This document shows, one piece after another, positions 23,441-62,704 of a stretch of DNA of 64,000 bases (positions within the stretch are counted from its first letter, which is position 1; every line of letters begins with the position of its first letter). Below the pieces are notes generated by a model. It made no database searches. It saw only the letters and a program-made list of their open reading frames with translations, and was not told the origin of the DNA. Location of the stretch: IMG/VR virus record IMGVR_UViG_3300005330_000016, positions 1 to 64,000 of that record. One strand, given 5' to 3'. The stretch comes from a virus (lineage: Duplodnaviria > Caudoviricetes). Made by a program: the position numbers and the translations under genes.

Positions 23441-23509
23441 CTCCGGCATTTTGAAAACTCGGGTGAAAGGGTATTGACAGTTCAATCAGCGGGGTGTAGG
23501 GTTACGGAC
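23441..23509 (+). promoter_or_regulatory. Promoter P1 with imperfect box CTCCGGCA; leaderless start at 23510
   Basis: TTGACA 23474-23479, 17 nt, TAGGGT 23497-23502, 7 nt to ATG; box gap 25 nt. Confidence 0.8.
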
Positions 23510-23848
23510 ATGAGCAGCGCACTTCGGATCCCAAGGGCCTACATCAACTGGGCGAAGGCGATGATCAACACTTTTTGGGAGAAGCCTCTGGACAAAGGCC
23601 AGCGACCACTCATGAGCAAGGCTCAGATCCGCGAACAGATCGTCTTCGGAATTGCTCAGATGCAAGCAGCAGATGGCGACTCGGCCACTTGGACGCCCTG
23701 CCTACATTGCGACGAAACCGGGATGTACCTGAAGGATGGAGCCGATCACGAAGAACTCTGCTACCAGTGCACAGGCAAGGGCCGACAGTCGGAAGCAGAC
23801 CGCAAGCGCAATTGGGGCTATCAAGCCCACAAGAGGGAGAACTACTAA
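23510..23848 (+). CDS. Cassette protein with DnaJ-like CxxCxGxG zinc-finger motifs
   Basis: CLHCDETG...CYQCTGKG; leaderless start. Confidence 0.7.
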   Translation: MSSALRIPRAYINWAKAMINTFWEKPLDKGQRPLMSKAQIREQIVFGIAQMQAADGDSATWTPCLHCDETGMYLKDGADHEELCYQCTGKGRQSEADRKRNWGYQAHKRENY

Positions 23849-24114
23849 TGACCGAAACGTTCTGGCTTGGGTACAGCGATACCCACTTCCGTGACCGGCC
23901 ACAACGGCCACCATTCCATCTAGTTCACCAGGCTACGCACTTTCGTCGTGCCGCGAGCATGTGCGGTATCTACGTTACCGTCAGCAAGCGCACGTATAAC
24001 ACGGCACCCGACGTACGTCTATGCAAAAAGTGCCTGAAGGCCGCTCAGCCCTTTATAGGATCTCCTGAGCGAGAACCCGGCACGCCAGATCAAGCGAGCC
24101 AGTCGCAGAGCTAA
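23848..24114 (+). CDS. Small Zn-binding cassette protein
   Basis: TAATG coupling; H...C...CKKC; converges on and overlaps head-closure gene. Confidence 0.6.
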   Translation: MTETFWLGYSDTHFRDRPQRPPFHLVHQATHFRRAASMCGIYVTVSKRTYNTAPDVRLCKKCLKAAQPFIGSPEREPGTPDQASQSQS

Positions 24115-24415
24115 CCACCTCAAACGTGCGCCCGCTGCTGACTTCTACGAGTCGGTCAGTGGGCAGCACGTCGGACCCCCAAGCGAACACGAAGATCCAG
24201 ACCGAGATGCTCCGGACCTGTACCGCGTTCTCGCGCTCTAGTGGCGTGATGCCCTGGCGATAGAACTGGCATGGCAGAGTTGACGCAACGGTATACGTGT
24301 CGGTCATACCGCCGGTGGTATCGGCTACCTGGCCCTTGCGGCTTACCTCAACGCTCGTGTTGAACGTCTGCTGAATAACCCGCTTGAGTACGTCCGTGTT
24401 ACGAGGGATCGGCAT
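24053..24415 (-). CDS. Head closure / head-tail adaptor (SPP1 gp16-like)
   Basis: DTTGGMTDTY...DVLPTDRL...GRTFEVV. Confidence 0.8.
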   Translation of the reverse strand: MPIPRNTDVLKRVIQQTFNTSVEVSRKGQVADTTGGMTDTYTVASTLPCQFYRQGITPLERENAVQVRSISVWIFVFAWGSDVLPTDRLVEVSSGRTFEVVSSATGSLDLACRVLAQEIL

Positions 24416-25053
24416 CAGGCGACGTACCCAACACCGCGACGGTACTGGTCGATAATGCTCGCGGCGCTCTTGGGCAGGTTCTTGCCCGCCACCGTCACCG
24501 TTAGCTCATTGCCGATCTTGTAGCTCTGCACGCCCGGTATAACCAGATCGCTCAAGCCAGGTCCGGCTTCGCCTTCCGCCACCATCATGCACAACGTGGT
24601 GATCGGCATCGGAACGTTCGACAGCGTGCAATAGCCAAACTTGCCCGTCACCTTGACAGCATTCGTATACGACGGGAAGCTAAAGCGACCTTGCCACCAT
24701 GACTTGCAGATGCTCGTGTACGGCTCGCCGTTCACTAGTGCGTTGATCGGCTCTAAATGGTAGTCGGTGCCCGCCGACCAGACTGTCTCGTACACGCCGT
24801 CGCCGTTCGCGTCTGTCTCAAGCGTGGTTACGCTCAGGATGTCGTCTTCGGGCCGTAGCTCCCAGTAAGCATCACACGCCGTGTAGTAGCGAATCTCGTC
24901 CGAGTCGGTCGTGTAGAAACGCCTGCCTAGCGTGCGGTCGATCCATCGGGAAGCCGTCTGCAAGGCACGGTCTAACTGCCAATCGGACTCGGTGTTAGTA
25001 ATGCCCATGCGATCACGGAACTCGGCCACCGATGCGTACAGGTTTGCGCTCAC
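24415..25053 (-). CDS. Head-tail connector (gp6/gp15-like adaptor)
   Basis: YASVAEFRDRMGI...LQTASRWIDRTLGRRF...VKVTGKFGY. Confidence 0.85.
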   Translation of the reverse strand: MSANLYASVAEFRDRMGITNTESDWQLDRALQTASRWIDRTLGRRFYTTDSDEIRYYTACDAYWELRPEDDILSVTTLETDANGDGVYETVWSAGTDYHLEPINALVNGEPYTSICKSWWQGRFSFPSYTNAVKVTGKFGYCTLSNVPMPITTLCMMVAEGEAGPGLSDLVIPGVQSYKIGNELTVTVAGKNLPKSAASIIDQYRRGVGYVA

Positions 25054-25232
25054 TGAGGCTGCGCCCCGCGTGTCTCGGCTCGTGCCGGCCCTACGTCAAC
25101 GCCGTGGTACTCCAGGCACACCTTGCAGTGGAACAGGTCAATCAGCCTGCGTTGATGCTGACCGTGCACAAGCTCGTCAGACAGCTTCACCTCTTGCCGC
25201 AGATACGCCCACTGGTGCTTGTGCTGAGTCAT
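25050..25232 (-). CDS. Small hypothetical Zn-ribbon protein
   Basis: ATGA-coupled start; HKHQW...CKVC. Confidence 0.55.
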   Translation of the reverse strand: MTQHKHQWAYLRQEVKLSDELVHGQHQRRLIDLFHCKVCLEYHGVDVGPARAETRGAQPQ

Positions 25233-26329
25233 GTAAATGCCGCCACCTTTGCCCACGAGTAAGCCTCTATGGCATCTGCTACGTATTGCCTGTCCTGCTC
25301 GCTCAGCCACCAGCCAACCGGAATGGCGACCTGATGGCCCGAGAACTTGTCAACGCCAGGTAGCGGCCCGTTGTAGTAATCAAACCCTTTGTGCGTATCG
25401 TTGCGAGCGTGAACCTGGCCGGTCATAACGCCACGATCTGCCATGAACTTGATGAAGCCCTGCTGGTTTTTCACACGCAGCGTGAACAGCCACCACGAGC
25501 CTTTAGCGTCGGGTGGCGGGAACAACACATCTGGCCCGGCTCGCAGGTTCACCATGTACCAGGCCGCATTCTCCCGGTGACGGGAAACGACCCACGGCGC
25601 ATGCGGCAGATTGGCTAGACCAATGGTCGCGTTCACGTCGTTCATGTGGTACTTGTAGCCGACTTCTCTGATATCCTGAGCGCACCGGAAATCTGCTGAA
25701 GACTCCCTATCTAGCCCATACCATCTGAGTAGCTTGGCCCGTTCGTAGTGCTTCTGAGGCACGAGAAGCGCCCCTCCGTCAACCGTGGTCAGATGCTTGA
25801 TCGCCTGGAAGCTCCAGGCCACATAGTCACCGTGGTTGTCGGGATCCACCATCAGGTTGTGCGCCGCATCTTGAATGACCGGCACAGGCAACCCTGGTGG
25901 CATGAGCCGCTTGTAGTCGCACGATCTGCCAGCCCAGTCTACGGCCATGATCGCCTTGGTTCGCCGTGTGATCTTCCTGAGCACATCATCGGGGTCAATC
26001 AGGCCCGTCTCAGGATCCACGTCTGCCCATACGATCTTGGCTCGCCGCGTGACGATTGGGCTATTGGTTGCCGTACAGGTCATGGGCGTGGTGATCACTT
26101 CGTCGCCCAGGCCAACACCGCACAGATGTAACGCCAGGTCCAGGGCTGAAGTGCAGGAGTTCATCGTTAGTGGCGTTTCCAGTCCCACCAACTCAGCGAA
26201 TTGTCGCTCGAACTCCTGCACCTTCGGACCCTGCCCGATGAACAGACGGCCATCTTCATCGGGAGTCAGTGCTAGCCACGCCGCTACGCCGGCGTCTGCC
26301 GACATAAACGGACGAAACAGATCAATCAC
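25229..26329 (-). CDS. DegT/DnrJ/EryC1/StrS family PLP-dependent sugar aminotransferase
   Basis: GPKVQEFE, NSCTSALDLAL, IQDAAH, SFQAIKHLTTVDGG (catalytic Lys), GYKYHMND; GTGA-coupled start. Confidence 0.95.
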   Translation of the reverse strand: MIDLFRPFMSADAGVAAWLALTPDEDGRLFIGQGPKVQEFERQFAELVGLETPLTMNSCTSALDLALHLCGVGLGDEVITTPMTCTATNSPIVTRRAKIVWADVDPETGLIDPDDVLRKITRRTKAIMAVDWAGRSCDYKRLMPPGLPVPVIQDAAHNLMVDPDNHGDYVAWSFQAIKHLTTVDGGALLVPQKHYERAKLLRWYGLDRESSADFRCAQDIREVGYKYHMNDVNATIGLANLPHAPWVVSRHRENAAWYMVNLRAGPDVLFPPPDAKGSWWLFTLRVKNQQGFIKFMADRGVMTGQVHARNDTHKGFDYYNGPLPGVDKFSGHQVAIPVGWWLSEQDRQYVADAIEAYSWAKVAAFT

Positions 26330-26778
26330 GGCTTGCTCCGGAAGTAAGCGTACGTGTCGTCTTCGCCTGTCTTGTCCCACCGATCCGCGTGATGCGTCTT
26401 GACTGCTGCCGGGTTGTCTAGCTTCGCCTGCGCGTACAGCGTGATGCCTAACGCCTTAGCCTCATCCGCAAGCATATCTACGATCTTGCCGCCCAGGCCA
26501 CGGCCTATATGCTTGATCCAGACGCCCGCCGATGGATGCCAACCATCCTCTGCTTGCTTGATCATACCGAACCCCACAACCTCCCCATGCTGCGAGTACA
26601 GCCACGCATGCAGCTTGTCGTGGTTGGCTCGCCACCAACCCCACTGCTCTTCTTCGGTGACTTCGCGGTTATCGTTGCTGAAGCCCGCCCTGCCCTGGTT
26701 GCGAATGAGCCGCATGCAGTTGACGTGGCCCCAGGTTGTTACTCGGGTTGCCACCAGTGGAACGGTCACAACTCCCAT
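26326..26778 (-). CDS. GNAT N-acetyltransferase (PseH-like)
   Basis: MRLIRNQGR...VTEEEQWGWW, VVGFG, HIGRGLGGKI (acetyl-CoA motif A), DNPAAV. Confidence 0.8.
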   Translation of the reverse strand: MGVVTVPLVATRVTTWGHVNCMRLIRNQGRAGFSNDNREVTEEEQWGWWRANHDKLHAWLYSQHGEVVGFGMIKQAEDGWHPSAGVWIKHIGRGLGGKIVDMLADEAKALGITLYAQAKLDNPAAVKTHHADRWDKTGEDDTYAYFRSKP

Positions 26779-26969
26779 GTGGTGATTACCGCCAAGCCGG
26801 TCGCAATCGGATGCCACGTCCACCACACCGGGGCGGCTTCGGTCGCCAGTGCTCGCGTACAGCGCATGCAGATAAGCTCTGCCGTCCACGGCTCAACGAG
26901 CGGTATCACGTACTCGGTGCTCTTGCAACGTGGGCACAGGCTGATCACAGGTAGCTCGCTCAGCTTCAC
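26766..26969 (-). CDS. Small Zn-ribbon protein
   Basis: CPRC...CMRC; coupled. Confidence 0.5.
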   Translation of the reverse strand: MKLSELPVISLCPRCKSTEYVIPLVEPWTAELICMRCTRALATEAAPVWWTWHPIATGLAVITTWEL

Positions 26970-27715
26970 GTTGAGTAGCCTCCTGACACGTTCAGCACAG
27001 TGCCCGTCACGTAGTTGCTCTCGATCAGGTACATCACGGCCCGCGCCACGTCCTGTGGTTGTCCGAAGCGTCGCATAGGAATCTGACTCAGCACCTTCTC
27101 GCGGTTCTCTTGCGAGACTTCGCTAAGCATGCCAGTGCGGTCTATGAAGCCCGGCGCTACCGCGTTGACCGTGATGCCTTTGTGCGCTAGCTCGATGGCC
27201 GTAGCCTTAGTGAAGCCGACCAGGCCCGCCTTGCTCGCCGCGTAGCTAGCTGGCCCGAGTCGGCCATCCAGCCCAACAACGCTCACGATGTTGACGATCC
27301 TGCCCCAGCCGCGAGCAATCATGGCCGGTAAGGCGATCTGTGTAATCCGGAATGTTCCGGTTAGGTTTACGTCAACAACGTTACGCCAATCAGATAACGT
27401 GGTCTTACCAACGGACCTACCAGCGGTCACACCGGCGTTGTTGACCAGAATATCGCAGTCGAGTTCGGTCAGGATCGGGTACTCGTTGACCAGCGCCACC
27501 TTGAGGATCTCGGCGTCACCACCGTAGGCACGTACTTCGCGCATGGTCATCTCTGCCTGGTCGCCACGAGTGTTGTATCCGATGGTCACAGCCGCGCCTT
27601 GGCGTGCTAGCTCTAGCGAGATCGCTCTGCCGATGCCGTGCCCGCCGCCCGTTATCAGCGCATGTCGCCCAACCAACGGCAGCGGTGGCACGAGTACGTC
27701 AATCAACGCTGTCAT
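26966..27715 (-). CDS. Short-chain dehydrogenase/reductase (FabG/PhaB-like)
   Basis: TGGGHGIG, NNAG, YAASK catalytic motif, VNAVAPGFI. Confidence 0.95.
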   Translation of the reverse strand: MTALIDVLVPPLPLVGRHALITGGGHGIGRAISLELARQGAAVTIGYNTRGDQAEMTMREVRAYGGDAEILKVALVNEYPILTELDCDILVNNAGVTAGRSVGKTTLSDWRNVVDVNLTGTFRITQIALPAMIARGWGRIVNIVSVVGLDGRLGPASYAASKAGLVGFTKATAIELAHKGITVNAVAPGFIDRTGMLSEVSQENREKVLSQIPMRRFGQPQDVARAVMYLIESNYVTGTVLNVSGGYST

Positions 27716-28287
27716 GGGCGAGCGATAGCTACGATGGCGTTGATCCAGATCGGGTCGTTGCCGAAGCCGTTTACCGTGCCTTCGATGTAGTCAAAATCCC
27801 CATTGTAGGCGTCGGTGAACTTGCCGATCTTGCCAGGCACGTTGGGTGTCACAACGCAATGCCCGCCGATGGTGTCACGTTCAAGCCTCCCCGCTTGACT
27901 CCAAAAGATCTGTCTGCCGTAGTACGACTGAAACCGGAACAGCAGCACCTTACCCGGCCAGGTCTGCGCTCCACGGCGCATCAAGGAAACCGCATCGGGC
28001 GTCCAGATGTCGTCGTCGTCGTTCAAGTGGATGTAGTCACCCTTGGCCTGGGTGATCGCGTAGTTGTGCTGGCAATGCCCGAAGCAATGGTGCCCTGCGT
28101 CCAGGCTTAGATAGCGAAGCCCCAACCCGGTCGTCAGTGCTTCTACACCGGGCAACTGGCCGTCGTGCGTATCTCCTACGACGATAACCTCATCACCTGA
28201 ACCGAGTTGGGGCTTGATGCTAGCCAGGCAACGCGCTAGTGGACGATCTTCCCTATGCGTTGCGACGATGAAAGAAAAGGTAGTCAG
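27712..28287 (-). CDS. GT2 glycosyltransferase; probable CUG start at 28287
   Basis: TTFSFIVATH...RCLASI...DEVIVVGD N-terminus lies upstream of the called TTG; GDYIHLNDDDD DxD motif. Confidence 0.85.
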   Translation of the reverse strand: MTTFSFIVATHREDRPLARCLASIKPQLGSGDEVIVVGDTHDGQLPGVEALTTGLGLRYLSLDAGHHCFGHCQHNYAITQAKGDYIHLNDDDDIWTPDAVSLMRRGAQTWPGKVLLFRFQSYYGRQIFWSQAGRLERDTIGGHCVVTPNVPGKIGKFTDAYNGDFDYIEGTVNGFGNDPIWINAIVAIARP

Positions 28288-30284: not shown

Positions 30285-30291
30285 GGTGGAG

Positions 30292-31201: not shown

Positions 31202-31270
31202 CGCCGGCGGTTTTAGAATTGGTCTTGAAAAAGTGTTGACAGATCAATGAGGAAGGTGTAAGTTACGCAT
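31202..31270 (+). promoter_or_regulatory. Promoter P2 with CGCCGGCG box; leaderless start at 31271
   Basis: Box 31202-31209, gap 26, TTGACA 31236, 17 nt, TAAGTT 31259, 6 nt to ATG. Confidence 0.85.
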
Positions 31271-34421: not shown

Positions 34422-34490
34422 CGCCGGCATTTTGAAAACTCGCTCGAAACCCTATTGACAGTCTCGAAAAGGCATGATACGTTCAAGGGG
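34422..34490 (+). promoter_or_regulatory. Promoter P4 with CGCCGGCA box; leaderless start at 34491
   Basis: Gap 25, TTGACA 34455, 17 nt, TACGTT 34478, 7 nt to ATG. Confidence 0.8.
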
Positions 34491-35973: not shown

Positions 35974-36176
35974 CCCACGGAGGAAAGCGCCCAGGCTCGG
36001 GCGCAAAGCCCAAGGGGGCTGACGGCAAGAACCTGACTCTACGCTTCTACGGGGCTGACCGTGAGCGGATCGCTAACTGGCGCATGTGGTACGCGCTACC
36101 GTCTGACGCAGCCGCCGTGCGGCACATGATGCTGGTCGCGGAAGCCGCTCGAAGTCGAATCGCCGGCGAATCCTGA
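35970..36176 (+). CDS. Small DNA-binding protein (GG.RPGSG.KP motif plus ribbon-helix-helix-like body)
   Basis: THGGKRPGSGAKP then beta-strand and two helices; paralogue at 61587. Confidence 0.6.
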   Translation: MTHGGKRPGSGAKPKGADGKNLTLRFYGADRERIANWRMWYALPSDAAAVRHMMLVAEAARSRIAGES

Positions 36177-36223
36177 AACTCGTTTGAAAAACTATTGACA
36201 GGTCTGCGCTACGGGTGTATCTT
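36160..36223 (+). promoter_or_regulatory. Promoter P5 with perfect TCGCCGGCGA box
   Basis: Box 36161-36168, gap 26, TTGACA 36195, 17 nt, TATCTT 36218. Confidence 0.85.
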
Positions 36224-36732: not shown

Positions 36733-37312
36733 ATGCTTGCCCGCCAACAATTGGGCTGATCGTGAGATGACAGTGCGGGTGAGCTAGCTCGGGCGCGTTG
36801 TTTACCGCCACTACCGTGCCATCCCGGCCAGCACAGAACGAATCGTAGTCGCCGTCGTGGACGAGCAATGCGGTCACTATGCCACGACCAAGGGTCTGGA
36901 ACTTCTGCACGGTCGCCTGTAGCTGAGCCTTCTGTAGCTCGGTCTTCGCCACGGTCAACGAGCGATGCTTCCACGTGCGCGTGAACAGGCTGTCAATACC
37001 TTCGAAGTCTTCCGCCCCGTACGCGATCTCGTACGGCGTCAGCCCTCTGCTAGCGCCGTCTGCGATGCGCTGGGCTATCTGCTTCCGCGTGGCTGCGTCC
37101 ACGGCCACGGCACCGGCGCGAGCGTTGAGAATGGCAGAACGCACAGCCGCGTCATCGAGCGGTACCGGCCCTAGGTCAAGCAACCTGATCGTCAAGCCGT
37201 GAACGGCCTTGGCAATCGTGCCGTACCACTTGACGAAAATCAACGTGAGCAGCGCTAGCTCCAGATCGTTATCGCGTACGTCATGCTCTTCGTCAGCTTT
37301 GGTCGCCGGCAT
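36731..37312 (-). CDS. Minor head morphogenesis protein (Mu F / SPP1 gp7-like)
   Basis: RSLTVAKTEL, C..RDG, HPHCHLTI motif; follows portal on the same strand. Confidence 0.8.
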   Translation of the reverse strand: MPATKADEEHDVRDNDLELALLTLIFVKWYGTIAKAVHGLTIRLLDLGPVPLDDAAVRSAILNARAGAVAVDAATRKQIAQRIADGASRGLTPYEIAYGAEDFEGIDSLFTRTWKHRSLTVAKTELQKAQLQATVQKFQTLGRGIVTALLVHDGDYDSFCAGRDGTVVAVNNAPELAHPHCHLTISPIVGGQA

Positions 37313-37373
37313 CTCTAACATTCGTCTTGAAAACCCCTTGACAGATCTAGAGCGGCGGGCGTAAGCTACGGAC
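37304..37373 (+). promoter_or_regulatory. Promoter P6 with CGCCGGCA box; leaderless start at 37374
   Basis: Gap 26, TTGACA 37338, 18 nt, TAAGCT 37362, 6 nt to ATG. Confidence 0.85.
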
Positions 37374-37756: not shown

Positions 37757-37930
37757 ATGAAGCAACCAATGACGCCCGAGAAGCTCGCTCAGAACGCATA
37801 CCTGAAGCGAGAGCGCATGTACCAGATCATGCACATCCGCGAGCAGGCGAACTATGACGAGCACGTCGTGGACTTCGCCGGCGAGCCAGTTAGCCTCAGC
37901 GAACTGGCCGAGTTGTGGGTGCCGGCATAA
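37757..37930 (+). CDS. Small hypothetical cassette protein (57 aa, MKQPMTPEK...)
   Basis: GGAAAGG SD; manually translated. Confidence 0.55.
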   Translation: MKQPMTPEKLAQNAYLKRERMYQIMHIREQANYDEHVVDFAGEPVSLSELAELWVPA

Positions 37931-37980
37931 CGCCGGCATTCCCTATTGACAGATCAAGCGCGCAGGAGTAAGTTACGAGT
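37875..37980 (+). promoter_or_regulatory. Promoter P7 with three boxes; leaderless start at 37981
   Basis: TCGCCGGCGA 37875, TGCCGGCA 37920, CGCCGGCA 37931; TTGACA 37946, 17 nt, TAAGTT 37969, 6 nt to ATG. Confidence 0.85.
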
Positions 37981-40102: not shown

Positions 40103-40150
40103 TGCCGGCAACTATTGACACCCCTTGACTACCTATGCTATATTCAAGTT
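40103..40150 (+). promoter_or_regulatory. Promoter P8 (extended -10) with TGCCGGCA box
   Basis: Box 40103-40110, gap 4, TTGACA 40115, 18 nt, TGcTATATT 40136-40144. Confidence 0.8.
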
Positions 40151-40270: not shown

Positions 40271-42316
40271 CTATCGTGCGTTGTAGTGAGTGCTGATCGT
40301 GCCGCTGCTCAACGCGGTCCCGCTCCAGACAGCAATCTCGTCCAGCGTGCCCTTGACGTAGTAGAACGTGCCGCCGTCCAGATCTACGCCGAAGTTCGCG
40401 GTCGTCGGAGTTGCAGCCGTGATGCTGGTCGAATCGCTCGCCGTAGACGCCGTGCCGTTGTTGACGTAGAGCTTCATGGTCGTGCCGTCGTAGGTCGCTA
40501 CGACGTGGTACCAAGTGCTCGTAGCCAGCGTCGTCGTGTTCGTCGTTGCCACTTGCGCGTTGGTGTCATGCCAGCGCTGGAAGTAGAAGTGCGGGGTTGT
40601 GTCTACACTGACGTTCCAGCCATGACGATTGCCTGAGCCGTCATTGCGGCTCTTCTGAACAAGCATCTGCGTCGTGCCCGGCCAGGACGAAGGCGACTTG
40701 TACCAGAACTCAACGCTAAAGCTTGTCGTCCCGGTGAAACCGTAGTTGTCACCCATGCTGAGCGCGTCGTTGGTGCCGTCGAACGTGACCGCTGTGTCGG
40801 CATCACAAGTCAGGTTGCTGGTCGCGCCCAGTGTCGGGCCACCGGCATACGTGCCGCTAATTGCACCCACGTACGGGCTTGCCGTGGTCCCGCTTGGTTC
40901 CCCCAGTCGCCAGTAGCTCGATGGACTCGAAGCGGCTACTTCATGGGCGTACAGACCGTTCGTGAACGTCTGGTACGCACCGATCTGAACCGGGCAGCCG
41001 CTCGTCCTGCTCAGGCCGGCTCGGTCTACGTTGAGCGGGATAGACTCGCTGTAGTAGCCGGTCTTGCTGGCGATGTACGTAGCGTGGTTGTAAGCCGCAG
41101 AGCTTTGGCTGCTCAGTGTCCAGTTAGACGCCCAGTTGGTGATCAGTGGGTCGCCGGTCTGCGGGTTGCTCTGGCTCGGGATGTTGGTCGTGCAGCCAGG
41201 ATTCCTGAACAGGTTGTAGTCAACCGTGCGCCCGGTCGTGTTGCCGTCGTCGGTCAAGCCGTTCGAGCAGGTTTCAACGATGTTGTTCTTCCAGACCGGG
41301 TTGTGGTTGTGGCTACTCCAGCCGCCGCCGTTCTGCTCGCGCATTGCGGTACCGGCCTTGTAGATGTCGTTGTGGTACGCGCCGCACTCTTCACAGCCCT
41401 GCATCATCATGCCGTAGGCCCAGCCAGCCGTCGTGTTGGACGTGACGATGTTGTTGACCGCCGTGTTGTAGTAGCCCTCATACGAGCAGCCCGTACAGTC
41501 GCCGGTCGCGCCACCTGACGAGCCGCCCAGGTCAATGCCAATACCGGCTGTGTTGGTGCTCGTTAGCTGGATCAGGTTGTCTCGTACCTGAGCGGATCTC
41601 GTGCCGCCTTTGGTCTGGATGCCGTCACCTGGCGTGCCAGGCGTAGCGAACAGCAGCGGGTTCTGGATCGTGTTGCGCTGGAAGACCGGGCGAACGCCAC
41701 CATACGAAGCCAGGCACTGGTAGCAATCGTAGATTGTGTTGTTGTCGATCAGCGCATCAGCGCTACTCGTCGTCACCTTGATCGGCGTCTGCGAGTTGTG
41801 CAGCTTCGAGTTCTTGACCGTGACGTTGTTGCTAGCTCCGTTGACGCCAATCCAGATGAGCTTGTCGTCATAGCTCGCGCTGTCACCGAGAGTCGCCTGC
41901 GTGAACTCGAAGCCATCGAAAACCACGTTTGACTTGGCGTCAAGGCCCAGCTTGTACGTGTTCTTCGCGCCGGTTGGAGCGGTGATGATCGCGCCGTACT
42001 GGCTCGTGCTGACGAACGTGATCGGGTTGCCCGCTGAGCCTGAGCTAGCAAAGTTGATCATGCCGTTGCTCGGGTCGGTGTACGTGCCCGACGCGAAGTT
42101 GACTACATCGCCGGCTGACAACGTGTGCTCGGCGGCATAGCGGAACGTCAGCCACGGCCCATGCCCGCCACCAACGGTTGCAGACAGGCCGTCGTTTGAG
42201 TTGCTGCCCGTAGAAGCGTTGACGTAGTACTGCGTCCCGGCGTGCACCACGCTAGCCGGAACGATGAAGACCGCCAACAGGCAGAGCACCAGGGCTGATC
42301 GTCGCAAGAAGTTCAT
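40271..42316 (-). CDS. Signal-peptide-bearing right-handed beta-helix plus C-terminal LamG protein
   Basis: MNFLRRSALVLCLLAVFIVPASVVHA signal; YYVNASTGSNSNDGLS...PWLT (DUF1565-like); LamG SYWRLGE...GTLDEIAVW. Confidence 0.85.
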   Translation of the reverse strand: MNFLRRSALVLCLLAVFIVPASVVHAGTQYYVNASTGSNSNDGLSATVGGGHGPWLTFRYAAEHTLSAGDVVNFASGTYTDPSNGMINFASSGSAGNPITFVSTSQYGAIITAPTGAKNTYKLGLDAKSNVVFDGFEFTQATLGDSASYDDKLIWIGVNGASNNVTVKNSKLHNSQTPIKVTTSSADALIDNNTIYDCYQCLASYGGVRPVFQRNTIQNPLLFATPGTPGDGIQTKGGTRSAQVRDNLIQLTSTNTAGIGIDLGGSSGGATGDCTGCSYEGYYNTAVNNIVTSNTTAGWAYGMMMQGCEECGAYHNDIYKAGTAMREQNGGGWSSHNHNPVWKNNIVETCSNGLTDDGNTTGRTVDYNLFRNPGCTTNIPSQSNPQTGDPLITNWASNWTLSSQSSAAYNHATYIASKTGYYSESIPLNVDRAGLSRTSGCPVQIGAYQTFTNGLYAHEVAASSPSSYWRLGEPSGTTASPYVGAISGTYAGGPTLGATSNLTCDADTAVTFDGTNDALSMGDNYGFTGTTSFSVEFWYKSPSSWPGTTQMLVQKSRNDGSGNRHGWNVSVDTTPHFYFQRWHDTNAQVATTNTTTLATSTWYHVVATYDGTTMKLYVNNGTASTASDSTSITAATPTTANFGVDLDGGTFYYVKGTLDEIAVWSGTALSSGTISTHYNAR

Positions 42317-42375
42317 GCCGGCATTCCTCCGATTGGTTGTTGACAAGTCAAGAGCGTAGGTGTAAGTTGAAGGAG
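42316..42375 (+). promoter_or_regulatory. Promoter P9 with TGCCGGCA box; leaderless start at 42376
   Basis: Gap 16, TTGACA 42340, 17 nt, TAAGTT 42363, 7 nt to ATG. Confidence 0.85.
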
Positions 42376-50007: not shown

Positions 50008-50067
50008 GTCCCTACCCTACGCCCGTATCGCTTGCCTGTCAACAACTAATCTAGTCAGATGCCGGCA
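50008..50067 (-). promoter_or_regulatory. Promoter P10 with TGCCGGCA box
   Basis: Box 50060-50067, gap 17, TTGACA 50042-50037, 17 nt, TAGGGT, 6 nt to ATG. Confidence 0.85.
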
Positions 50068-50237: not shown

Positions 50238-50307
50238 GTACTGAACCTACACCCACCGCGATAGCCCCGTCAATACCTTTTCAGGCTACTTCGTCATATG
50301 CCGGCAT
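50238..50307 (-). promoter_or_regulatory. Promoter P11 with ATGCCGGCAT box
   Basis: Box 50299-50306, gap 25, TTGACG 50273-50268, 18 nt, TAGGTT, 6 nt to ATG. Confidence 0.8.
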
Positions 50308-51281: not shown

Positions 51282-51464
51282 CTAAGCCGATCTCCTGCGG
51301 TACTCTCGCTGGTACTCTCGGTACCGTTCACGATTATCGTCTACCCAGCGCTTGGTCCGGATCACCATACACGGCTTGCAGTATGCCCGTACCCTGTCGG
51401 ATCCTGTTCGCCAGCCGAAGTCAATGATGTCTTTCACCTGGCCGCAGTCCGGACAACGCCTCAT
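51282..51464 (-). CDS. Small Zn-finger protein
   Basis: CPDCGQVK...YCKPC. Confidence 0.65.
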   Translation of the reverse strand: MRRCPDCGQVKDIIDFGWRTGSDRVRAYCKPCMVIRTKRWVDDNRERYREYQREYRRRSA

Positions 51465-52906
51465 AACAACTCCGATTGACCAATCACTTCACGCCCGAGT
51501 CGGTTAGCCGCGATGGCGCAGTAGCTCTCGTCCATCTCAATACCAATAGCGCGAAAGCCCTTCGCCGCCAGCAACGTGGTCCCGCTGCCCATGAACGGAT
51601 CTAGCACGCAGCCATCCGGTGGAGTCACCATAGCAACCAGCCAGCGCATGAGCGCCAACGGCTTGACCGTGGGGTGCGAGTTGCCTTCGCCACGTTCTGA
51701 TCGGCTGGCCTTGGCCGTGTAGAAGAATCGAGAAGCGCCGCCGGTGTCGCCATACGTATTGCTATCGTTGTAGATCGCGTCCTCAAAAACGCTGTAGGCG
51801 GTCCCATGAGAACGCTCTCGACTGTTATGGGGTTGCCGCTTACTACTCTTTAGCTCCCCGCTCATCTGATCGAGCAAGGCCGCAGCGTCTTCGTCCAGGC
51901 ACACGTTGGCCGGCCAGCGACCGGCGGGGTGGCGATGGGTACCTACAGTTTCGCCGTCTGCATCACGGAATCCCCATCCATCCTGCCTGGTATTACCGCG
52001 ATTCTTTGCACCCCACGTCCCCTCCAGACCGGGCGTGTGCTCAATCCTGCATCCGTCCACATTGATAGCGCCGGTGCCGTAGCGCTGGACGTTCTCAGCT
52101 ACCGTGCCCTGGAGTGGTTTCCGGGCCATGATGATCGGCTCCCAGGCCGGCTTGAGCGCCGTGCCCCAGCCTTCCCACTGTTTTGCTGCGTCGGTAGCAG
52201 GGGCGGTGATTGGTGCAACGTCGCCGTGGTGTTCGAGTGTCCAAGCATCCTGGGCATACACGCCGTTACTTCCACCACCGTGCCGATTGCCTGGCCCAGT
52301 AACCTCGCGCTCAACACCCGCTGCCTTGTCGATTGCCTTGCTCACGTCCAGCGATTTGGGGAAACCTGAGCCGTACAGCCAACTCAGGCAATCTCGAATC
52401 TCAAAGCCCGCGTCCTCAATCGCACACGTCAAGCGGTGGAAGGTTCTGCTTCCGCCAAATGCCAGCAGATGCCCGCCCGGCTTCAAGACGCGGAGTGCCT
52501 CACGCGCCCAGGCTTCGTGCCATTCCTGCATGAGCTTTGCCTGATCTGGCCGCGCACTCGGGAAATCCGGCTTGTCACAGTGACACCGCTTGCCGCCGCC
52601 GCCCGCATCGCCCTCTGTATGGCCCCACTTCCACTTACCGCAATTACGGCACCGAACGTTGCTTGATCCATTGAAGTTCACGCGTGCAGCGCGTCCAAAT
52701 ACTGTCGAGCCATCATATTTCGGGATGCCGCCGTGGCTCACCTTGCCAATATCACCAAGCCGATCCCACTCCTTGCCCATAAACTCAAGCCCGTAGGGCG
52801 GGTCGCACACGATGGCGTCGATGCTCTCCGGCTCCATCTCGGACATGGCGATACGGCAATCCGCGTTGTAGATCACGACGCCGGGTCGCTCGTAATACGG
52901 AGTCAC
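51461..52906 (-). CDS. N4-cytosine/N6-adenine DNA methyltransferase (beta class)
   Basis: DPPY motif IV, HPTVKP, VLDPFMGSGTT motif I; GTGA-coupled start. Confidence 0.95.
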   Translation of the reverse strand: MTPYYERPGVVIYNADCRIAMSEMEPESIDAIVCDPPYGLEFMGKEWDRLGDIGKVSHGGIPKYDGSTVFGRAARVNFNGSSNVRCRNCGKWKWGHTEGDAGGGGKRCHCDKPDFPSARPDQAKLMQEWHEAWAREALRVLKPGGHLLAFGGSRTFHRLTCAIEDAGFEIRDCLSWLYGSGFPKSLDVSKAIDKAAGVEREVTGPGNRHGGGSNGVYAQDAWTLEHHGDVAPITAPATDAAKQWEGWGTALKPAWEPIIMARKPLQGTVAENVQRYGTGAINVDGCRIEHTPGLEGTWGAKNRGNTRQDGWGFRDADGETVGTHRHPAGRWPANVCLDEDAAALLDQMSGELKSSKRQPHNSRERSHGTAYSVFEDAIYNDSNTYGDTGGASRFFYTAKASRSERGEGNSHPTVKPLALMRWLVAMVTPPDGCVLDPFMGSGTTLLAAKGFRAIGIEMDESYCAIAANRLGREVIGQSELL

Positions 52907-53313: not shown

Positions 53314-54771
53314 TCACGATACGTCCATCTCGGTGAACATCGGTGCTTCGCCTGTCACGCGATTCACTGCCTGCTGCGCATACTCTGGATTCAACTCACA
53401 GCCGATGGCGTTACGCCCCAGTCGCTCGGCCACCATGCCCACCGTGCCACTGCCGAAGAACGGGTCAAGTACCACTTGCGGTACGGGCGTCAGGTCCGCA
53501 TGAACGCAGGTCGGTTGCCAGCCGGTGGTCGTAACTTCGGTACCAGAACTCTGCCCGTTGGTATTGTGTATGCGCTGTTGCGTCCAGCCAGTAGTAGGAG
53601 CATAAGGTATCGCGCCACGGGCTAAGCCGTCGCGTTCTTCCCGCTCGTTCCATCGCTGTTTTTCAACCACCCGCGCCCACGGCGCACCGCACTCCGGGCA
53701 CTGGCCCTTCTCGGACGTGCCGGCCTTGATCATCGGCTCGACCAGCTTCGGCGGAAAGGTTGCGTAGTGCGAACCCTTGTACGGGGCCGGATTCACGATC
53801 AGCGCAAGTGGCTCGCCGTCTTCGTCTAACTCTAGCCCCTGCCACGACTCGAAAAACCAATCGCTGTTACGACGGCTGCGACCGGTTAGGCTGTCCGGTG
53901 CGGCACGTCCCACGCCTTCGGGTCGCGCAGCCGAGTTGCCGATTTTATCGGCTACGTGATCCTTGTATACGCCCACACCCCGGAACTCTTCGTTACGCCT
54001 GGTCGGCTCGCCTACCCTGGTACGCACCGCGTCGGCGTCCCAGTAGTAGCGAGCCGACTTGCTCAGCAGAAACACGTACTCCACGGCTGACGCTGGTCGG
54101 TCGGTCACGCTCTCGGGCATGCTGTTGCGTTTGAGCCACGGTATCTGGCTACGCAGGTACCAGCCGTCAGCCTGTAGAGCCATCGCCACCCTGACCGGCA
54201 TCATCATCAGGTCTTTGGCCTTGAAGCCCACGTCTACCCTGGTCGGTGCAGCCGTGAAGCCCTGGCGATTGCCCTGATCACCGATGCCGTTATGCCCAGT
54301 CGGCCCCTTGCCGGATCCTGCGTAGCTATCACCCATGTTGACCCATATGCAGCCGTCGTCCCTGAGCACGCGGCGCACTGCACGAAACACCTCTACCAGA
54401 TGCTCTAGAAATAGCTCGGGTGTCGGCTCTAGCCCTAATGAGCCACACCACGCACCGCACTCGCACACTGAGCCTTGAGAAATATCTGTCGTCCTGACCT
54501 TATCGGCGTACACCTTGGCCGGCTCGTGACTCCCTGCCCAATTGGTAAGAGTGCTACTTGGGCCGCCAAGTGTTGCGCCCAAAGTGACTCGCCGGGTGGC
54601 AGCCTCACCCCACTCATGCGCGTGCTGCGTGTCACCACCCCACACCAATGGCTCTAGCCCGTAATCTCTTAGCCCGTAGTAGGGCGGGCTGGTTACGACG
54701 CACTGCACGCTCTTCTCGGGCAGCGTAGCCAGCGTGTCAACGCAATGCCCGACCAGCAGCCGCGTAGACAT
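53314..54771 (-). CDS. Second N4/N6 DNA methyltransferase (beta class)
   Basis: VTSPPYYGL, W.K.NSMPESVTDRP, HYATFP, VLDPFFGSGT. Confidence 0.95.
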   Translation of the reverse strand: MSTRLLVGHCVDTLATLPEKSVQCVVTSPPYYGLRDYGLEPLVWGGDTQHAHEWGEAATRRVTLGATLGGPSSTLTNWAGSHEPAKVYADKVRTTDISQGSVCECGAWCGSLGLEPTPELFLEHLVEVFRAVRRVLRDDGCIWVNMGDSYAGSGKGPTGHNGIGDQGNRQGFTAAPTRVDVGFKAKDLMMMPVRVAMALQADGWYLRSQIPWLKRNSMPESVTDRPASAVEYVFLLSKSARYYWDADAVRTRVGEPTRRNEEFRGVGVYKDHVADKIGNSAARPEGVGRAAPDSLTGRSRRNSDWFFESWQGLELDEDGEPLALIVNPAPYKGSHYATFPPKLVEPMIKAGTSEKGQCPECGAPWARVVEKQRWNEREERDGLARGAIPYAPTTGWTQQRIHNTNGQSSGTEVTTTGWQPTCVHADLTPVPQVVLDPFFGSGTVGMVAERLGRNAIGCELNPEYAQQAVNRVTGEAPMFTEMDVS

Positions 54772-55037
54772 CAGATCGGCAACTCCGATGGCACGTACGT
54801 CTCGCCATCTACCGTGATCGGCTTGGGCTTCCAGTCTCGCGCATGCTTGGTCGGAACGCCCTTCGCCAGCTTCGCCGTGTTGAGCACGCCTGGGCACCGC
54901 GACTTGTTCTGGTGATCAACCTGGCATGTGCCGAACCCAAACTCGTCTAGCACCGCGCCGTGCTGTTCTTCGGCGTGATCGTGCCAGCCGTGATGTGTCT
55001 CCTGCTGATTCCAGCAAACCCCGCAAGTGTGCTTCAT
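54771..55037 (-). CDS. Cys/His-rich hypothetical protein
   Basis: 88-aa coupled ORF. Confidence 0.55.
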   Translation of the reverse strand: MKHTCGVCWNQQETHHGWHDHAEEQHGAVLDEFGFGTCQVDHQNKSRCPGVLNTAKLAKGVPTKHARDWKPKPITVDGETYVPSELPI

Positions 55038-55645
55038 CGGACTTCACCGCACTTCGGGCATGCCGATTGGTGCCAGTCGCCTGGGCACGTACCGTCGTCT
55101 TCTTCGAGTGCCTTGGCTAGCTCAGTTACCGCGTCGTCCGGGTCTTCGGTCGGGTGTAGAGCCGCCTGGGCAACTTGGCGCAGTTGCTTCACCGTCCACT
55201 CGTTCAACTCGGCCATGTCCAGCAGCCGGTCGGCTTGCTCGTAGGTCAGGTCGCTGCTTGACACCGCTTCGTGGTGCGACCACTCCAAAGATTCCCGGCG
55301 ACGGGACGGCTCGAAGCGACTAGACACCCACGCCGCGTTCTGAAGGCTCTTCTTCTTCAGCCCAATGGCGTCAGTGAACTGACTCGCCTCCTGACCGTAG
55401 TGCTTCTCGGCGTGGATCCACCAGTCGCCCGCGTACCAGCGCAGCCCTTCGCCCAGCTTGCGCAACGTGATGCCGACTTCTGACCACTCGTCCATCGTCA
55501 TGTCGTCGGGCAGGTTCAGGCTCGTCTTGGTCGGTCGTCCCGGCAGTACTAGCGCGTTGTCGTCCAGCACGCTGTGCACAACGCCATTGCCGTGTCGTTC
55601 CTGATCCTGGGCCATCAGCCTCAGCATTCCCGGTCGATCACTCAT
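55034..55645 (-). CDS. LmbU-family transcriptional regulator
   Basis: LNLPDDMTMDEWSEVG, WYAGDWW, GLKKKSLQNAAWVSSRFEPSRRRESLEWSHHEAV, EWTVKQLR align by eye with LmbU/HrmB/NovE motifs (W.LGDW, TLRNYAWV.RRF...RRR..LSF.HH.EVA, WT.KQLR). Confidence 0.85.
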   Translation of the reverse strand: MSDRPGMLRLMAQDQERHGNGVVHSVLDDNALVLPGRPTKTSLNLPDDMTMDEWSEVGITLRKLGEGLRWYAGDWWIHAEKHYGQEASQFTDAIGLKKKSLQNAAWVSSRFEPSRRRESLEWSHHEAVSSSDLTYEQADRLLDMAELNEWTVKQLRQVAQAALHPTEDPDDAVTELAKALEEDDGTCPGDWHQSACPKCGEVR

Positions 55646-61586: not shown

Positions 61587-61973
61587 CTAGGGCACCGCGA
61601 TGGCGATGATCCGCCGTAATGCTTCACTGGCATGCTGAGCACCGACCAGGCCGTGCTCTTGGCGGAATCGTTCGAGCCGTGCGTTTGCCTGCTCGTCCAG
61701 AACGAAGGCCCGAGTCGTGCTGCCGACCAGCGTAGGCTTGCGACCTGACCCTGGCCGGTAGCCGCCGTGAGTCTTCGGAATGCTCCGCGTCAGTGCCACG
61801 TTGCGAGCCACGATATCGGCCACCATCGGATCCGCCAGTCGCTTGACCGCTTCGGCCCGTAGCTCTGAGTTCACCTTGTGAGCCGCCACATGCCTGCCGT
61901 GGTTGCCACCGTTGTTGCTGACCTTGCCGCACCGCTCGCACGTATAGGTCTTCGTAGAGACGTTCGCTGTCAT
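61587..61973 (-). CDS. DNA-binding protein: C2H2-like finger, GG.RPGSG.KP motif, RHH-like C-terminus
   Basis: YTCERCG...H.RHVAAH; THGGYRPGSGRKP. Confidence 0.65.
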   Translation of the reverse strand: MTANVSTKTYTCERCGKVSNNGGNHGRHVAAHKVNSELRAEAVKRLADPMVADIVARNVALTRSIPKTHGGYRPGSGRKPTLVGSTTRAFVLDEQANARLERFRQEHGLVGAQHASEALRRIIAIAVP

Positions 61974-62022
61974 ATGCACGTAGCGTATCAGGCTTCCGGC
62001 AATCGGTCAATACGATGTCAAG
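61974..62022 (-). promoter_or_regulatory. Promoter P12 (no perfect box; TGCCGGAA in spacer)
   Basis: TTGACC 62010-62005, 17 nt, TACGCT 61987-61982, 8 nt to ATG. Confidence 0.6.
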
Positions 62023-62290
62023 CCTGCTTGTACGCCTCACGCGCCCAGCGGGCCATGTCGCGTTCTTGCTGCCGCTTGTGTGCCTTCAGCCGTCGCTGGT
62101 AGATCTTGGCTTGCTCCAGCAACACGGTTGCGTTGTCCACCAGCCGCTGAGCTATCTCTAGGTCTAGATCACTGGCGTGGTCGGGCACGGCTACTTCAAC
62201 GTTGTAGGCAATGAGCGCTCGCACGGCGGCATGGGCATAATCAGTGGCGTCAGCGACCCGCATGCCCATGCCGCTGTCTATGGTGTTCAT
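62018..62290 (-). CDS. Hypothetical helical protein
   Basis: ATGA-coupled 90-aa ORF. Confidence 0.6.
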   Translation of the reverse strand: MNTIDSGMGMRVADATDYAHAAVRALIAYNVEVAVPDHASDLDLEIAQRLVDNATVLLEQAKIYQRRLKAHKRQQERDMARWAREAYKQA

Positions 62291-62604
62291 GCGTCCATCT
62301 CCACTACTTCAACGTTAGTCTCGAATGGCGAGATGCTGTACTGCTCGCCTTGTCGCTCAACCAACACCTGGCAGTTGAACGTGTGCGGGTCGCCTGCGAT
62401 CCCGACAACGCGAACGATCTCGTCATGAACCAGAACATCATCGCCAACCTTGGGCTGGCGGCTCAGGACTGTGTAGCTCTTCATCCCCCCTACCTTATAC
62501 CCATGCGCTTGATCCGTCAATACCCCAATCCTGCCAATGCCGGCATAAACCGTAACCGGCACACCTATAGGAAACCGGACGTTACGGTTCCGTCTTTTCC
62601 CCAT
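62287..62604 (-). CDS. Hypothetical beta-rich (SH3-like) protein
   Basis: RFPIGVPVTVY...IGVL; PKVGDDVLV. Confidence 0.6.
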   Translation of the reverse strand: MGKRRNRNVRFPIGVPVTVYAGIGRIGVLTDQAHGYKVGGMKSYTVLSRQPKVGDDVLVHDEIVRVVGIAGDPHTFNCQVLVERQGEQYSISPFETNVEVVEMDA

Positions 62605-62639
62605 TCCATAACACGTTCCGGAACACGTTACGCTTTGCC

Positions 62640-62704
62640 CGCCGGCGAGTTTTGAAATTGGTACCGAAAACCTATTGACAATCAACGAGAGACGGGTGTA
62701 AGGT
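62640..62704 (+). promoter_or_regulatory. Promoter P13 with CGCCGGCG box
   Basis: Box 62640-62647, gap 27, TTGACA 62675, 18 nt, TAAGGT 62699. Confidence 0.85.

Follow-up and report, generated by a model that had tools for sequence, protein, structure and literature searches.

A candidate LmbU-family regulon in an uncultured soil phage: promoters with a helically phased GCCGGC box and a phage-encoded LmbU homologue

The locus raises the question of whether a phage-encoded protein of the LmbU family governs a dispersed set of the phage's own promoters through a short palindromic box. The window, by which we mean the whole stretch of DNA analysed here, covers 64 kb out of a 78-kb rhizosphere virus record. 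The phage is uncultured and comes from soil, the sequencing runs behind the record are rhizosphere metagenomes, the genes are mostly without annotation, and the region at 31-38.5 kb gave no DNA match among GenBank phages. A sequence-only reading of the window had proposed such a regulon, naming CGCCGGCG as the palindrome bound by LmbU. This site is borne out by two papers, according to which LmbU of Streptomyces lincolnensis binds 5'-CGCCGGCG-3' and its lmb promoter regions, lmbAp and lmbWp, are bound by SACE_5599 as well (PMC6510168, PMC10763038).

The same reading had claimed 13 promoters, 12 of them with a box of the form YGCCGGCR. A mechanical scan for TTGACN-N16-19-TANNNT recovers the same 13, between 23474 and 62675, and 12 carry a perfect GCCGGC core upstream, the exception being the imperfect site (CCGGCA) at 23474. 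A consensus scan that demands a TATAAT-like -10 overlooked the majority of these promoters for that reason. The promoters are as follows, with gaps given from the end of the core to the -35:

23441..23502, plus strand: promoter with imperfect box CCGGCA; -35 at 23474, -10 at 23497-23502, ATG 7 nt past the -10
31202..31264, plus strand: boxed promoter; CGCCGGCG at 31202, gap 27, -35 at 31236, -10 TAAGTT; leaderless ATG at 31271; orthologue kept in L205
34138..34200, plus strand: boxed promoter; TGCCGGCA at 34138, gap 27, -35 at 34172; no ORF begins directly 3'; box overlaps the start (MPAT...) of the divergent gene 33526-34146
34422..34483, plus strand: boxed promoter; CGCCGGCA at 34422, gap 26, -35 at 34455, ATG 7 nt past the -10
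36161..36223, plus strand: boxed promoter; (T)CGCCGGCG(A) at 36161, gap 27, -35 at 36195; no ORF called over the roughly 300 nt that come next
37304..37367, plus strand: boxed promoter; CGCCGGCA at 37304, gap 27, -35 at 37338, spacer 18; leaderless ATG at 37374; gap of 17 in the L003 orthologue
37920..37974, plus strand: double-box promoter; TGCCGGCA at 37920 and CGCCGGCA at 37931, gaps 19 and 8, cores 11 bp apart centre to centre, hairpin possible; -35 at 37946, ATG at 37981; L003 orthologue 9 nt longer
40103..40144, plus strand: boxed promoter; TGCCGGCA at 40103, gap 5, -35 at 40115, -10 TATATT; drives a predicted structured tRNA-like RNA at about 40151-40257
42316..42368, plus strand: boxed promoter; TGCCGGCA at 42316, gap 17, -35 at 42340, ATG 7 nt past the -10; gap likewise 17 in the L003 orthologue
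50014..50067, minus strand: boxed promoter; box 50060-50067, gap 18, -35 at 50042, leaderless ATG
50244..50306, minus strand: boxed promoter; box 50299-50306, gap 26, -35 TTGACG at 50273, spacer 18, leaderless ATG
62492..62545, minus strand: boxed promoter; box 62538-62545, gap 18, -35 at 62520; heads a long leftward operon with P0001 (below) and both methyltransferase genes
62640..62704, plus strand: boxed promoter; CGCCGGCG at 62640, gap 28, -35 at 62675, spacer 18; divergent from the minus-strand promoter at 62520

Five further boxed promoters lie outside the window, at genome positions 66763, 67845, 69594, 69818 and 71113. In the whole genome, the pattern scan yields 19 convincing promoters of the form TTGACA-N17/18-TANNNT, predicted sites that are of the sigma-70/sigma-A leaderless type, 14 of them with an ATG 6-7 nt past the -10. 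A perfect GCCGGC lies at most 36 nt upstream of the -35 at 17 of the 25 pattern-defined sites genome-wide, where 3.9% per site is expected (binomial, 9e-19). The gaps fall into classes of 26-28 nt (11 boxes), 16-19 nt (6) and 5-8 nt (2), with a Rayleigh R of 0.84 at a 10-bp period that none of 20,000 uniform draws matched, although the p-values for position and phasing exaggerate independence because the promoters are paralogous. The clustering by helical turns seen in the earlier reading extends to the entire genome: many promoters have one and the same palindrome 5' of the -35, shifted from one promoter to another by full turns of the helix.

The enrichment is one of position and very strong as such, whereas the overall abundance of YGCCGGCR is only mildly raised (24 found versus 12.8 expected; 2 of 100 shuffles reach 24). 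These 24 sites in the window include every box coordinate listed in the sequence-only reading, which did miss the box at 62538 of the minus-strand promoter 62520, and the positions it gave for exact CGCCGGCG (31202, 36161, 37876 and 62640) are correct. The conserved site is compact: the hexamer is invariant, the stretch that separates it from the -35 varies freely, and the sequence 5' of the box is without conservation. The regulon-like promoter set is real. We also considered whether the box marks the coding start of divergent genes, an explanation that fits only 3 of 18 promoters (divergent genes beginning MPAT or MPAK).

The box recurs in related phages. Boxed promoters account for 5/6 and 1/1 in L003 and L205 (portal 91% identical), and the box is also kept in the L177 lineage. 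Furthermore, all three promoters of L011 (portal 68%) have a changed -10 (GATACT) and retain GCCGGC, at gaps of 8, 7 and 36. Orthologous promoters differ by indels of 9-10 nt, with gaps of 27 versus 17 at 37338 and 8 versus 17 at 37946, and indels of this size fit a face-of-helix constraint. In IMG/VR, the strict boxed-promoter pattern was found only in the sister phage (L003/L208, L205) and in two chance matches. The L011-type pattern matched only L011 and L235, and a repeat search in L005 and L007 revealed no alternative promoter family.

The candidate regulator lies in an operon with two methyltransferase genes:

55034..55645, minus strand: P0001, LmbU-family homologue of 203 aa; ParB/KorB-type helix-turn-helix core at about residues 67-165, C-terminal CPxCG motif
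53314..54771, minus strand: N6_N4 DNA methyltransferase, downstream of P0001 with one small gene in between
51461..52906, minus strand: second N6_N4 DNA methyltransferase, same operon as P0001

The reading frame exists as had been described, and its assignment to the LmbU family holds in that P0001 matches the NF038070 profile at E 3.4e-28 over profile positions 1-140 of 171, although its 98.7 bits lie below the curated cut-off of 125. In a tblastn search, 23 Streptomyces and Pseudonocardia plasmids were matched (32-38% identity, E down to 4e-15); wherever annotated, the 22 plasmid matches listed are called "LmbU family transcriptional regulator". Likewise, all 40 of the HMMER matches nearest to P0001 also match NF038070. 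In a quick IQ-TREE analysis in which deep branching is unsettled, a Streptomyces/Nocardia/Saccharothrix/Thermoleophilia clade with 100% SH-aLRT excludes P0001. The CPxCG motif is common to P0001 and the actinomycete homologues, and the putative recognition (second) helix, KSLQNAAWVSSRF in P0001 versus QTLMNMAYVASRF in the actinomycete consensus, is identical at 7 of 13 positions; the LmbU-like protein of L177 has a different helix again, QTLYNLTWVANAF. Judged by its sequence, P0001 is a genuine LmbU-family homologue, yet one that appears to fall outside the actinomycete LmbU clade.

The predicted fold of P0001 matches ParB/Spo0J/KorB DNA-binding domains with Z 8.7 (rmsd 3.1, 92 aligned), 8.5, 7.1 and down to 6.7. 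Residues 1-26 are predicted with low confidence and without regular structure, and neither a Pfam search nor the model, a helical DNA-binding core plus this N-terminus, shows an N-terminal ParB/Srx CTPase domain. A symmetric homodimer is predicted in silico with a score of 0.75 versus 0.00 for the best control. Among solved structures, 20 of 30 homodimers and 1 of 23 monomers attain that mark; the runs share no fewer than 63% of contacts, with pLDDT of at least 70. P0001 matched no Pfam family at E up to 1 and nothing in PHROGs, its profile found no match among PDB sequences, and Foldseek against the PDB returned weak rows only (E >0.2). A 76%-identical homologue, P0002, is known, and scans of viral contigs for P0001 and of metagenome contigs for P0002 found nothing. 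That proteins of this kind are unknown in phages can be said only with a qualification: a search with P0001 found none among GenBank phages, but relatives are encoded by at least 23 IMG/VR contigs. The NF038070 profile had no match in the fragments L003, L205, L011, L007 and L004, which represent 6-19% of a genome.

This phage combines the LmbU-like gene with boxed promoters, and in the L177/L179/L168 lineage a promoter of the form GCCGGC-N26-TTGACA-N17-TAAGGT is found about 520 nt 5' of the LmbU-like gene. Both LmbU and boxed promoters are absent from G002, a complete relative, and the boxed family occurred in 0 of 22 phage loci with a methyltransferase homologue and no LmbU-like gene; L217 has a single boxed site, consistent with chance. 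At about 158 other LmbU-like loci, however, GCCGGC is enriched neither upstream of TTGACR (57 observed versus 70 expected) nor 5' of the LmbU-like genes themselves (42 versus 64). The evidence for co-occurrence comes from two or three related lineages.

We tentatively propose, as a plausible reading, that P0001 may regulate the boxed promoters by binding the box. The recognisable phage promoters form one family, mostly leaderless, of the host sigma-A/sigma-70 type and predicted to be strong. Each has a short palindrome, Y-GCCGGC-R, as its putative operator, which keeps to a single helical face at about 45, 55 or 65 bp 5' of the start site; between operator and -35 lie 0, 1 or 2 A/T-rich modules of about 10 bp (of the TTGAAAA or GATTNGTTG type). 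The operator would most likely be bound by a symmetric dimer of P0001, with its ParB/KorB-type helix-turn-helix, which would modulate RNA polymerase at all boxed promoters simultaneously. Since the boxed promoter at 62520 heads the operon of P0001, the protein would also regulate itself. The sign of the effect, like the binding, is something we infer: because the core promoter elements are near consensus, we favor timed repression or modulation over simple activation.

An alternative that we consider quite possible is that the box is a real operator but bound by something other than P0001, be it a second phage protein or a regulator of the host that might belong to the LmbU family, and that P0001 serves the neighbouring methyltransferase(s), either by controlling their transcription, as C proteins do in restriction-modification, or as a DNA-targeting domain that has become detached. 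Most near relatives of P0001 occur as N-terminal domains fused to DNA methyltransferases, with MT-A70, N6_N4 or Dam domains in 70 of the best 120 profile matches and in 5 of 10 long HMMER matches. Furthermore, the LmbU-like/methyltransferase module is kept in L177/L178, where the methyltransferase segments are about 60-87% identical to those of this phage (protein, tblastx) versus 33% for the LmbU-like protein, and the placement of P0001 in a conserved module suggests a methylation-linked role. The absence of box co-occurrence at LmbU-like genes elsewhere also favors a different factor, as do the promoters of L007 (portal identity 71%), which carry another upstream motif, TTTGTGACAC, indicating that upstream elements are swapped among relatives; a second candidate DNA binder, with DUF6551 and a phage zinc finger, is encoded at genome positions 64752-65804. 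However, no other protein of the genome has a documented link to GCCGGC, and the agreement of the box with the published LmbU site would be a coincidence. Moreover, P0001 is not part of a fusion and carries at its C-terminus the CPxCG motif seen in the actinomycete regulators, and methyltransferase homologues without an LmbU-like partner are common, so that the enzyme needs no such partner.

The box could also do without a trans-acting partner. It would then be the conserved outer border of a promoter cassette that duplication and recombination have spread, here and there serving as a hairpin or terminator arm, and the spacing classes would reflect whether A/T modules of about 10 bp are present or absent, not selection on the helical phase. 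The promoters clearly are paralogous, sharing spacer and upstream modules, and mosaic breakpoints between this phage and L003 coincide with boxed promoters, including a 2.2-kb indel (about 40086-42315) with box-like repeats on its flanks and a cassette replaced right past promoter 37946. Both double boxes (37920/37931 and a pair at about 69785/69796) can form hairpins of 6-7 bp just past stop codons. We nevertheless regard this explanation as unlikely: hitch-hiking predicts decaying similarity, and an invariant hexamer in diverging surroundings counts against it, as do the survival of the box in L011 despite the altered -10 and the Y/R flanks, found at 17 of 19 promoter boxes versus 13 of 67 other copies of GCCGGC. 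Single boxes cannot form hairpins, and a hairpin or terminator reading of them was rejected because a complementary arm is not found consistently upstream. Even less probable, to our mind, is an epigenetic switch, in which a phage methyltransferase, possibly guided by P0001, would modify GCCGGC and the methylation state would tune the activity or timing of the promoters. Two N6_N4 methyltransferases do share the operon with P0001, the LmbU-like domain is recurrently fused to such enzymes, and GCCGGC, with 86 copies, is tolerated unlike most GC-rich 6-bp palindromes in the genome (of 34 palindromes tested, 9 are absent and many others strongly depleted), which could mean protection by modification. 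But G002, which is without the LmbU-like and methyltransferase genes, has GCCGGC equally often (76 copies), so that nothing special is required to account for its tolerance, and boxes are absent from loci that have only the methyltransferase homologue. We likewise give little credence to a dual-purpose ParB-fold module, in which binding of P0001 to GCCGGC would both regulate promoters and guide or control the neighbouring methyltransferase, coupling promoter use to box methylation, and in which the LmbU regulators of antibiotic clusters would descend from a methyltransferase DNA-targeting domain of mobile elements.

Binding of the box by P0001 would make this the first regulon of the LmbU family to lie outside antibiotic gene clusters and a compact natural case of one operator governing almost every promoter of a phage in whole helical turns. 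The LmbU family, which is poorly understood, would then belong to a far larger, mostly methyltransferase-fused radiation of mobile elements (6,532 representatives of clusters, E up to 0.001), and actinomycete synthetic biology would gain a defined set of promoters that are strong, leaderless and addressable by a regulator. With or without a link to LmbU, the promoters and their upstream operator describe how transcription is organised in this phage lineage, as does their role as a recombination junction for small antisense cassettes.

Among known systems, the LmbU family (LmbU, SACE_5599, HmtD, HrmB; NF038070) comes closest, with significant homology to the core of P0001, a published site identical to 5 of the 19 phage promoter boxes whose core is common to all 19, and the shared C-terminal motif. 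A ParB/Spo0J-like helix-turn-helix was modelled for LmbU by its authors, resembling the fold predicted for P0001, and the homodimer is published for LmbU and predicted for P0001. Unlike the family, the P0001 gene lies in a phage beside DNA methyltransferases rather than in a biosynthetic cluster, and the protein departs from it in cut-off, clade and recognition helix as described above. LmbU has an N-terminal auto-inhibitory domain. The putative targets of P0001 are about 18 dispersed consensus promoters as opposed to a few biosynthetic operons.

KorB of plasmid RK2, a global repressor of the ParB family, has 12 palindromic OB operators, whose distance to the promoters varies. The KorB structures 1r71 and 8qa8 have the same DNA-binding fold as the P0001 model (Z 7.1 and 6.7), and both RK2 and the phage are mobile elements that repeat one palindromic operator 5' of many promoters of their own, with several fixed spacings to the -35. 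Unlike KorB, P0001 is without the N-terminal ParB CTPase domain, its operator would span 8 bp versus 13 bp, and a KorA-like partner was not identified in the phage. In actinophages, operator networks such as the stoperators of cluster A mycobacteriophages and the conserved inverted repeats of phiC31 are controlled by one phage protein, and they share with this phage a short operator in many copies genome-wide that is tied to transcription control. Those operators are situated inside promoters or downstream of them and stop initiation or elongation, whereas here nearly every promoter has the site 5' of its -35 and in helical phase. This placement on one face is that of phi29 p4 and class I activators such as CRP, proteins without homology to P0001, whose upstream sites can be moved in whole turns and whose binding can activate or over-stabilise RNA polymerase; in contrast to that case, the phage promoters already have consensus -35 and -10 elements.

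A mechanical scan of the whole phage genome (G000) for the pattern TTGACN-N16-19-TANNNT returned 25 sites, 19 of which are convincing promoters, located between genes or at gene ends and alike in their spacers (for example, GATCAAG follows the -35 element and GGTG precedes the -10 element). A perfect GCCGGC core is located at most 36 nt upstream of the -35 in 17 of these 19; the exceptions are the promoters at 23474 (promoters are named by the position of their -35), where the box reads CCGGCA, and at 64694, which has no box. The box and promoter coordinates reported in the sequence-only reading of this DNA were all correct, and the set now extends to 19 promoters genome-wide, including one with an overlooked box and five beyond the end of the window:

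62520 (box at 62538), minus strand, boxed promoter missing from the earlier list
66763, 67845, 69594, 69818 and 71113, boxed promoters past the window end

GCCGGC occurs in 86 copies in 78 kb, such that 3.9% of the pattern sites would be expected to carry it, compared with the observed 17/25 (binomial tail 9e-19), and the distances from core to -35 fall into clusters of 26-28, 16-19 and 5-8 nt with a 10-bp periodicity (R = 0.84, reached in 0/20,000 uniform draws), as anticipated when box enrichment and spacing by one helical turn were first proposed, but these statistics overstate independence because the promoters are paralogues. For the same reason, the comparative evidence weighs more.

When the promoters were aligned on the box, the information content was limited to Y-GCCGGC-R, often followed by T; the sequence upstream was not conserved, and downstream there were just loose A/T-rich modules. 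The Y/R flanks are found at 17/19 promoter boxes, compared with 13/67 of the remaining GCCGGC copies in the genome. Up to two modules of about 10 bp (in some promoters none) separate the box from the -35, the proximal module being cTTGAAAAnnTA or GATTnGTTG and the distal one TTTTGAAAACTCG-like. An ATG is located 6-7 nt past the -10 in 14/19 promoters, which indicates that the corresponding mRNAs are probably leaderless, and with a leaderless start 7 nt past the -10 the box centers would be placed near -45, -55 and -65. Double boxes, 11 bp apart from center to center, are present at two promoters and are also able to form short hairpins directly past a stop codon.

The IMG/VR record of 77,982 bp, of which the window covers bases 1-64000, is rated complete, has a GC content of about 59-60% and represents a tailed phage with the following genes:

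18181-20574, tape measure gene
29532-30434, major capsid gene
38560-40068, portal gene

Further genes code for two N6_N4 DNA methyltransferases, a Rad52-like protein and an AAA_25 ATPase. Rhizosphere metagenome runs contain the same DNA, the listed runs including none of RNA, and no near DNA match was found among GenBank phages. An actinomycete host is suggested by the leaderless consensus promoters, by the extreme avoidance of restriction palindromes and by protein matches on plasmids of Streptomyces and Pseudonocardia. Genome-wide, CGATCG, CTCGAG, CTGCAG, GACGTC, GAGCTC, TGGCCA, CCGCGG and GGGCCC are absent (0 copies each), CAGCTG, GGCGCC and CCCGGG occur once each and TTAA twice; tolerated palindromes are GCCGGC, AGCGCT (45 copies), GCTAGC (38) and GGATCC (34). 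Such extreme avoidance of 6-bp palindromes suggests a host with many restriction systems; it is far weaker in the complete relative G002, where most sites have normal counts and a few are rare (e.g., CCCGGG, GGGCCC, CAGCTG). Other features of the genome include a group I intron (29346-29563, minus strand; Rfam RF00028, 74.7 bits) that splits the major capsid gene, and the exact intron segment is missing from the related fragment L205, the alignment of which connects 29311 to 29554. In the portal-side operon, downstream of a tRNA-Met gene (48989-49063), a gene on the minus strand (44738-48625) encodes a protein of 1295 aa that carries a GH5 cellulase domain at its C-terminus (Pfam E 2e-37). Finally, two neighbouring genes (genome 73182-76584, L124:13182-16584, minus strand) make up a conjugation-like module, unusual company for phage tail genes aside, and encode a TraG/VirD4-like P-loop ATPase of 537 aa and a 550-aa protein, the C-terminal part of which matches an HNH endonuclease weakly and below threshold (E 6e-4, 19.9 bits versus a cut-off of 24.8 bits).

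Relatives were gathered by a portal protein search. Of the six such promoters in L003 (91% portal identity), five are boxed and one has GCCAGC. Promoter 31236 has an orthologue in L205, which stems from the sample of L003, and there the box is kept while the sequence between box and promoter is altered. The gap of promoter 37338 is 27 nt in G000 versus 17 in its L003 orthologue, and that of promoter 37946 is 8 versus 17, so that indels close to a helical turn in length set orthologous promoters apart. The three promoters of L011 (portal 68%) differ in their core, TTGACT-N17-GATACT, and GCCGGC is located upstream of every one, with gaps of 8, 7 and 36 nt. The metagenomic lineage L177/L179/L168 contains GCCGGC-N26-TTGACA-N17-TAAGGT together with a GAATTGGT module that resembles those in G000. 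Boxed promoters were not found in L004-L006 and L008-L010 (portal 71-73%), including the complete 61-kb genome G002. In L007 (71% portal identity), promoters at 3494 and 6917 (minus strand) are preceded by TTTGTGACAC instead of, or besides, GCCGGC, which may be an alternative upstream operator. Being kept in L003/L205, L011 and the L177 lineage and missing from the 71-73% relatives, the box is an upstream element under selection and specific to certain lineages, as would be expected of an operator for a lineage-specific DNA-binding protein.

The repeated promoters serve also as recombination junctions: boxed promoters mark the exact points at which the similarity between G000 and L003 ends, and box-like repeats are located on both sides of a 2.2-kb segment (about 40086-42315). 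In 23441-42600, the minus-strand structural operons are interspersed with small antisense cassettes on the plus strand, every cassette having a boxed promoter to itself; G000 and L003 differ by exchanged cassette contents, and the breakpoints fall at the promoters. The 2.2-kb segment, which is missing from L003, includes a putative structured RNA of about 105 nt (40151-40257, plus strand) downstream of boxed promoter 40115, which is predicted to drive it. This RNA has a 7-bp acceptor-like stem, a GGGGGUUCGAAUCCCCC T-arm and a 3' ACCA (z-score -2.8), and ARAGORN made no tRNA call for it.

Which protein might bind the box? The candidate regulator is encoded within a long operon that runs leftward from the boxed promoter 62520, for which reason autoregulation is possible:

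55034-55645, minus strand, P0001, LmbU-like protein of 203 aa

No match to P0001 was found in Pfam or PHROG. The predicted relationship to the LmbU family was borne out by the NCBIfam profile NF038070 (LmbU_fam_TF; E 3.4e-28), at 98.7 bits and thus below the curated cut-off of 125 bits, and in a quick tree P0001 was placed outside a clade with 100% support formed by stand-alone proteins from actinomycetes and Thermoleophilia. In view of these two results we consider P0001 an LmbU-family homologue and do not class it as an LmbU orthologue. A C-terminal CPxCG motif is common to P0001 and the actinomycete homologues. Another homologue, P0002, has 76% identity to P0001. The best structural matches to its AlphaFold2 model (mean pLDDT 83) are DNA-binding domains, namely ParB (Z 8.7, rmsd 3.1 Å, 92 residues aligned), Spo0J (8.5), KorB (7.1, 6.7) and SopB, a likeness that is suggestive, Z scores of this size being weak for helical proteins, yet fits published modelling of the family. 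The predicted homodimer scored 0.75 versus 0.00 for the best control, a mark reached in calibration by 20/30 solved homodimers and 1/23 solved monomers; at least 63% of the contacts were shared between runs of the P0001 model, and pLDDT was at least 70. The LmbU-like family is very large, numbering 6,532 cluster representatives with an E-value of no more than 0.001, and in some marine Alphaproteobacteria (Ruegeria and Roseovarius MAGs) the domain is present in 10-20 near-identical copies per genome, which suggests that a multicopy element, such as an insertion sequence, carries it.

The box is very probably a protein-binding operator when every reading that places a protein on it is counted. 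The best single hypothesis, albeit a tentative one, is that P0001 acts there, because the family has an identical published site, a symmetric dimer is predicted, the fold is fitting and there is limited co-occurrence. LmbU recognizes the conserved site 5'-CGCCGGCG-3', in agreement with the palindrome given in the sequence-only reading, extended at lmbA to TCGCCGGCGA; the lmb promoter regions bound by LmbU are also bound by its homologue SACE_5599, and LmbU is a homodimer with an HTH modelled on Spo0J (PMC6510168, PMC10763038). Nearly as likely is a role for P0001 linked to methylation, with a different factor at the box. Methyltransferase domains (MT-A70, N6_N4 or Dam) are fused to 70 of the best 120 profile hits and to 5/10 long HMMER hits, such that most of the nearest relatives of P0001 are something other than antibiotic-cluster regulators. 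An N6_N4 methyltransferase gene is located one small gene downstream of P0001, and L177/L178 contain this module too, with an identity of about 60-87% in the methyltransferase segments (tblastx) but only 33% in the LmbU-like protein. The proposal of a phage LmbU regulon stands as regards a regulon-like set of boxed promoters, while P0001 is a tentative candidate for the binder of the box, its relatives being mostly methyltransferase-fused and its putative recognition helix sharing 7/13 residues with the actinomycete consensus and being different again in the L177 protein.

Among the surveyed loci with LmbU-like genes (23 viral, 79 genomic and 80 metagenomic), boxed promoters were confined to G000-related lineages. 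Co-occurrence did not extend beyond these lineages: GCCGGC was not enriched upstream of TTGACR (57 observed versus 70 expected in about 158 of the loci), nor upstream of the LmbU-like genes themselves (42 versus 64). The positive co-occurrence is thin; L003, L205 and L011 are short fragments and the count rests on G000 and the L177 lineage, which have both gene and boxed promoters, and G002, which has neither. The boxed promoter family was found in 0/22 phage loci with a methyltransferase and no LmbU-like gene.

The boxed phage promoters would work like the KorB network of plasmid RK2, as a repeated-operator arrangement, or like a class I upstream-site regulon.
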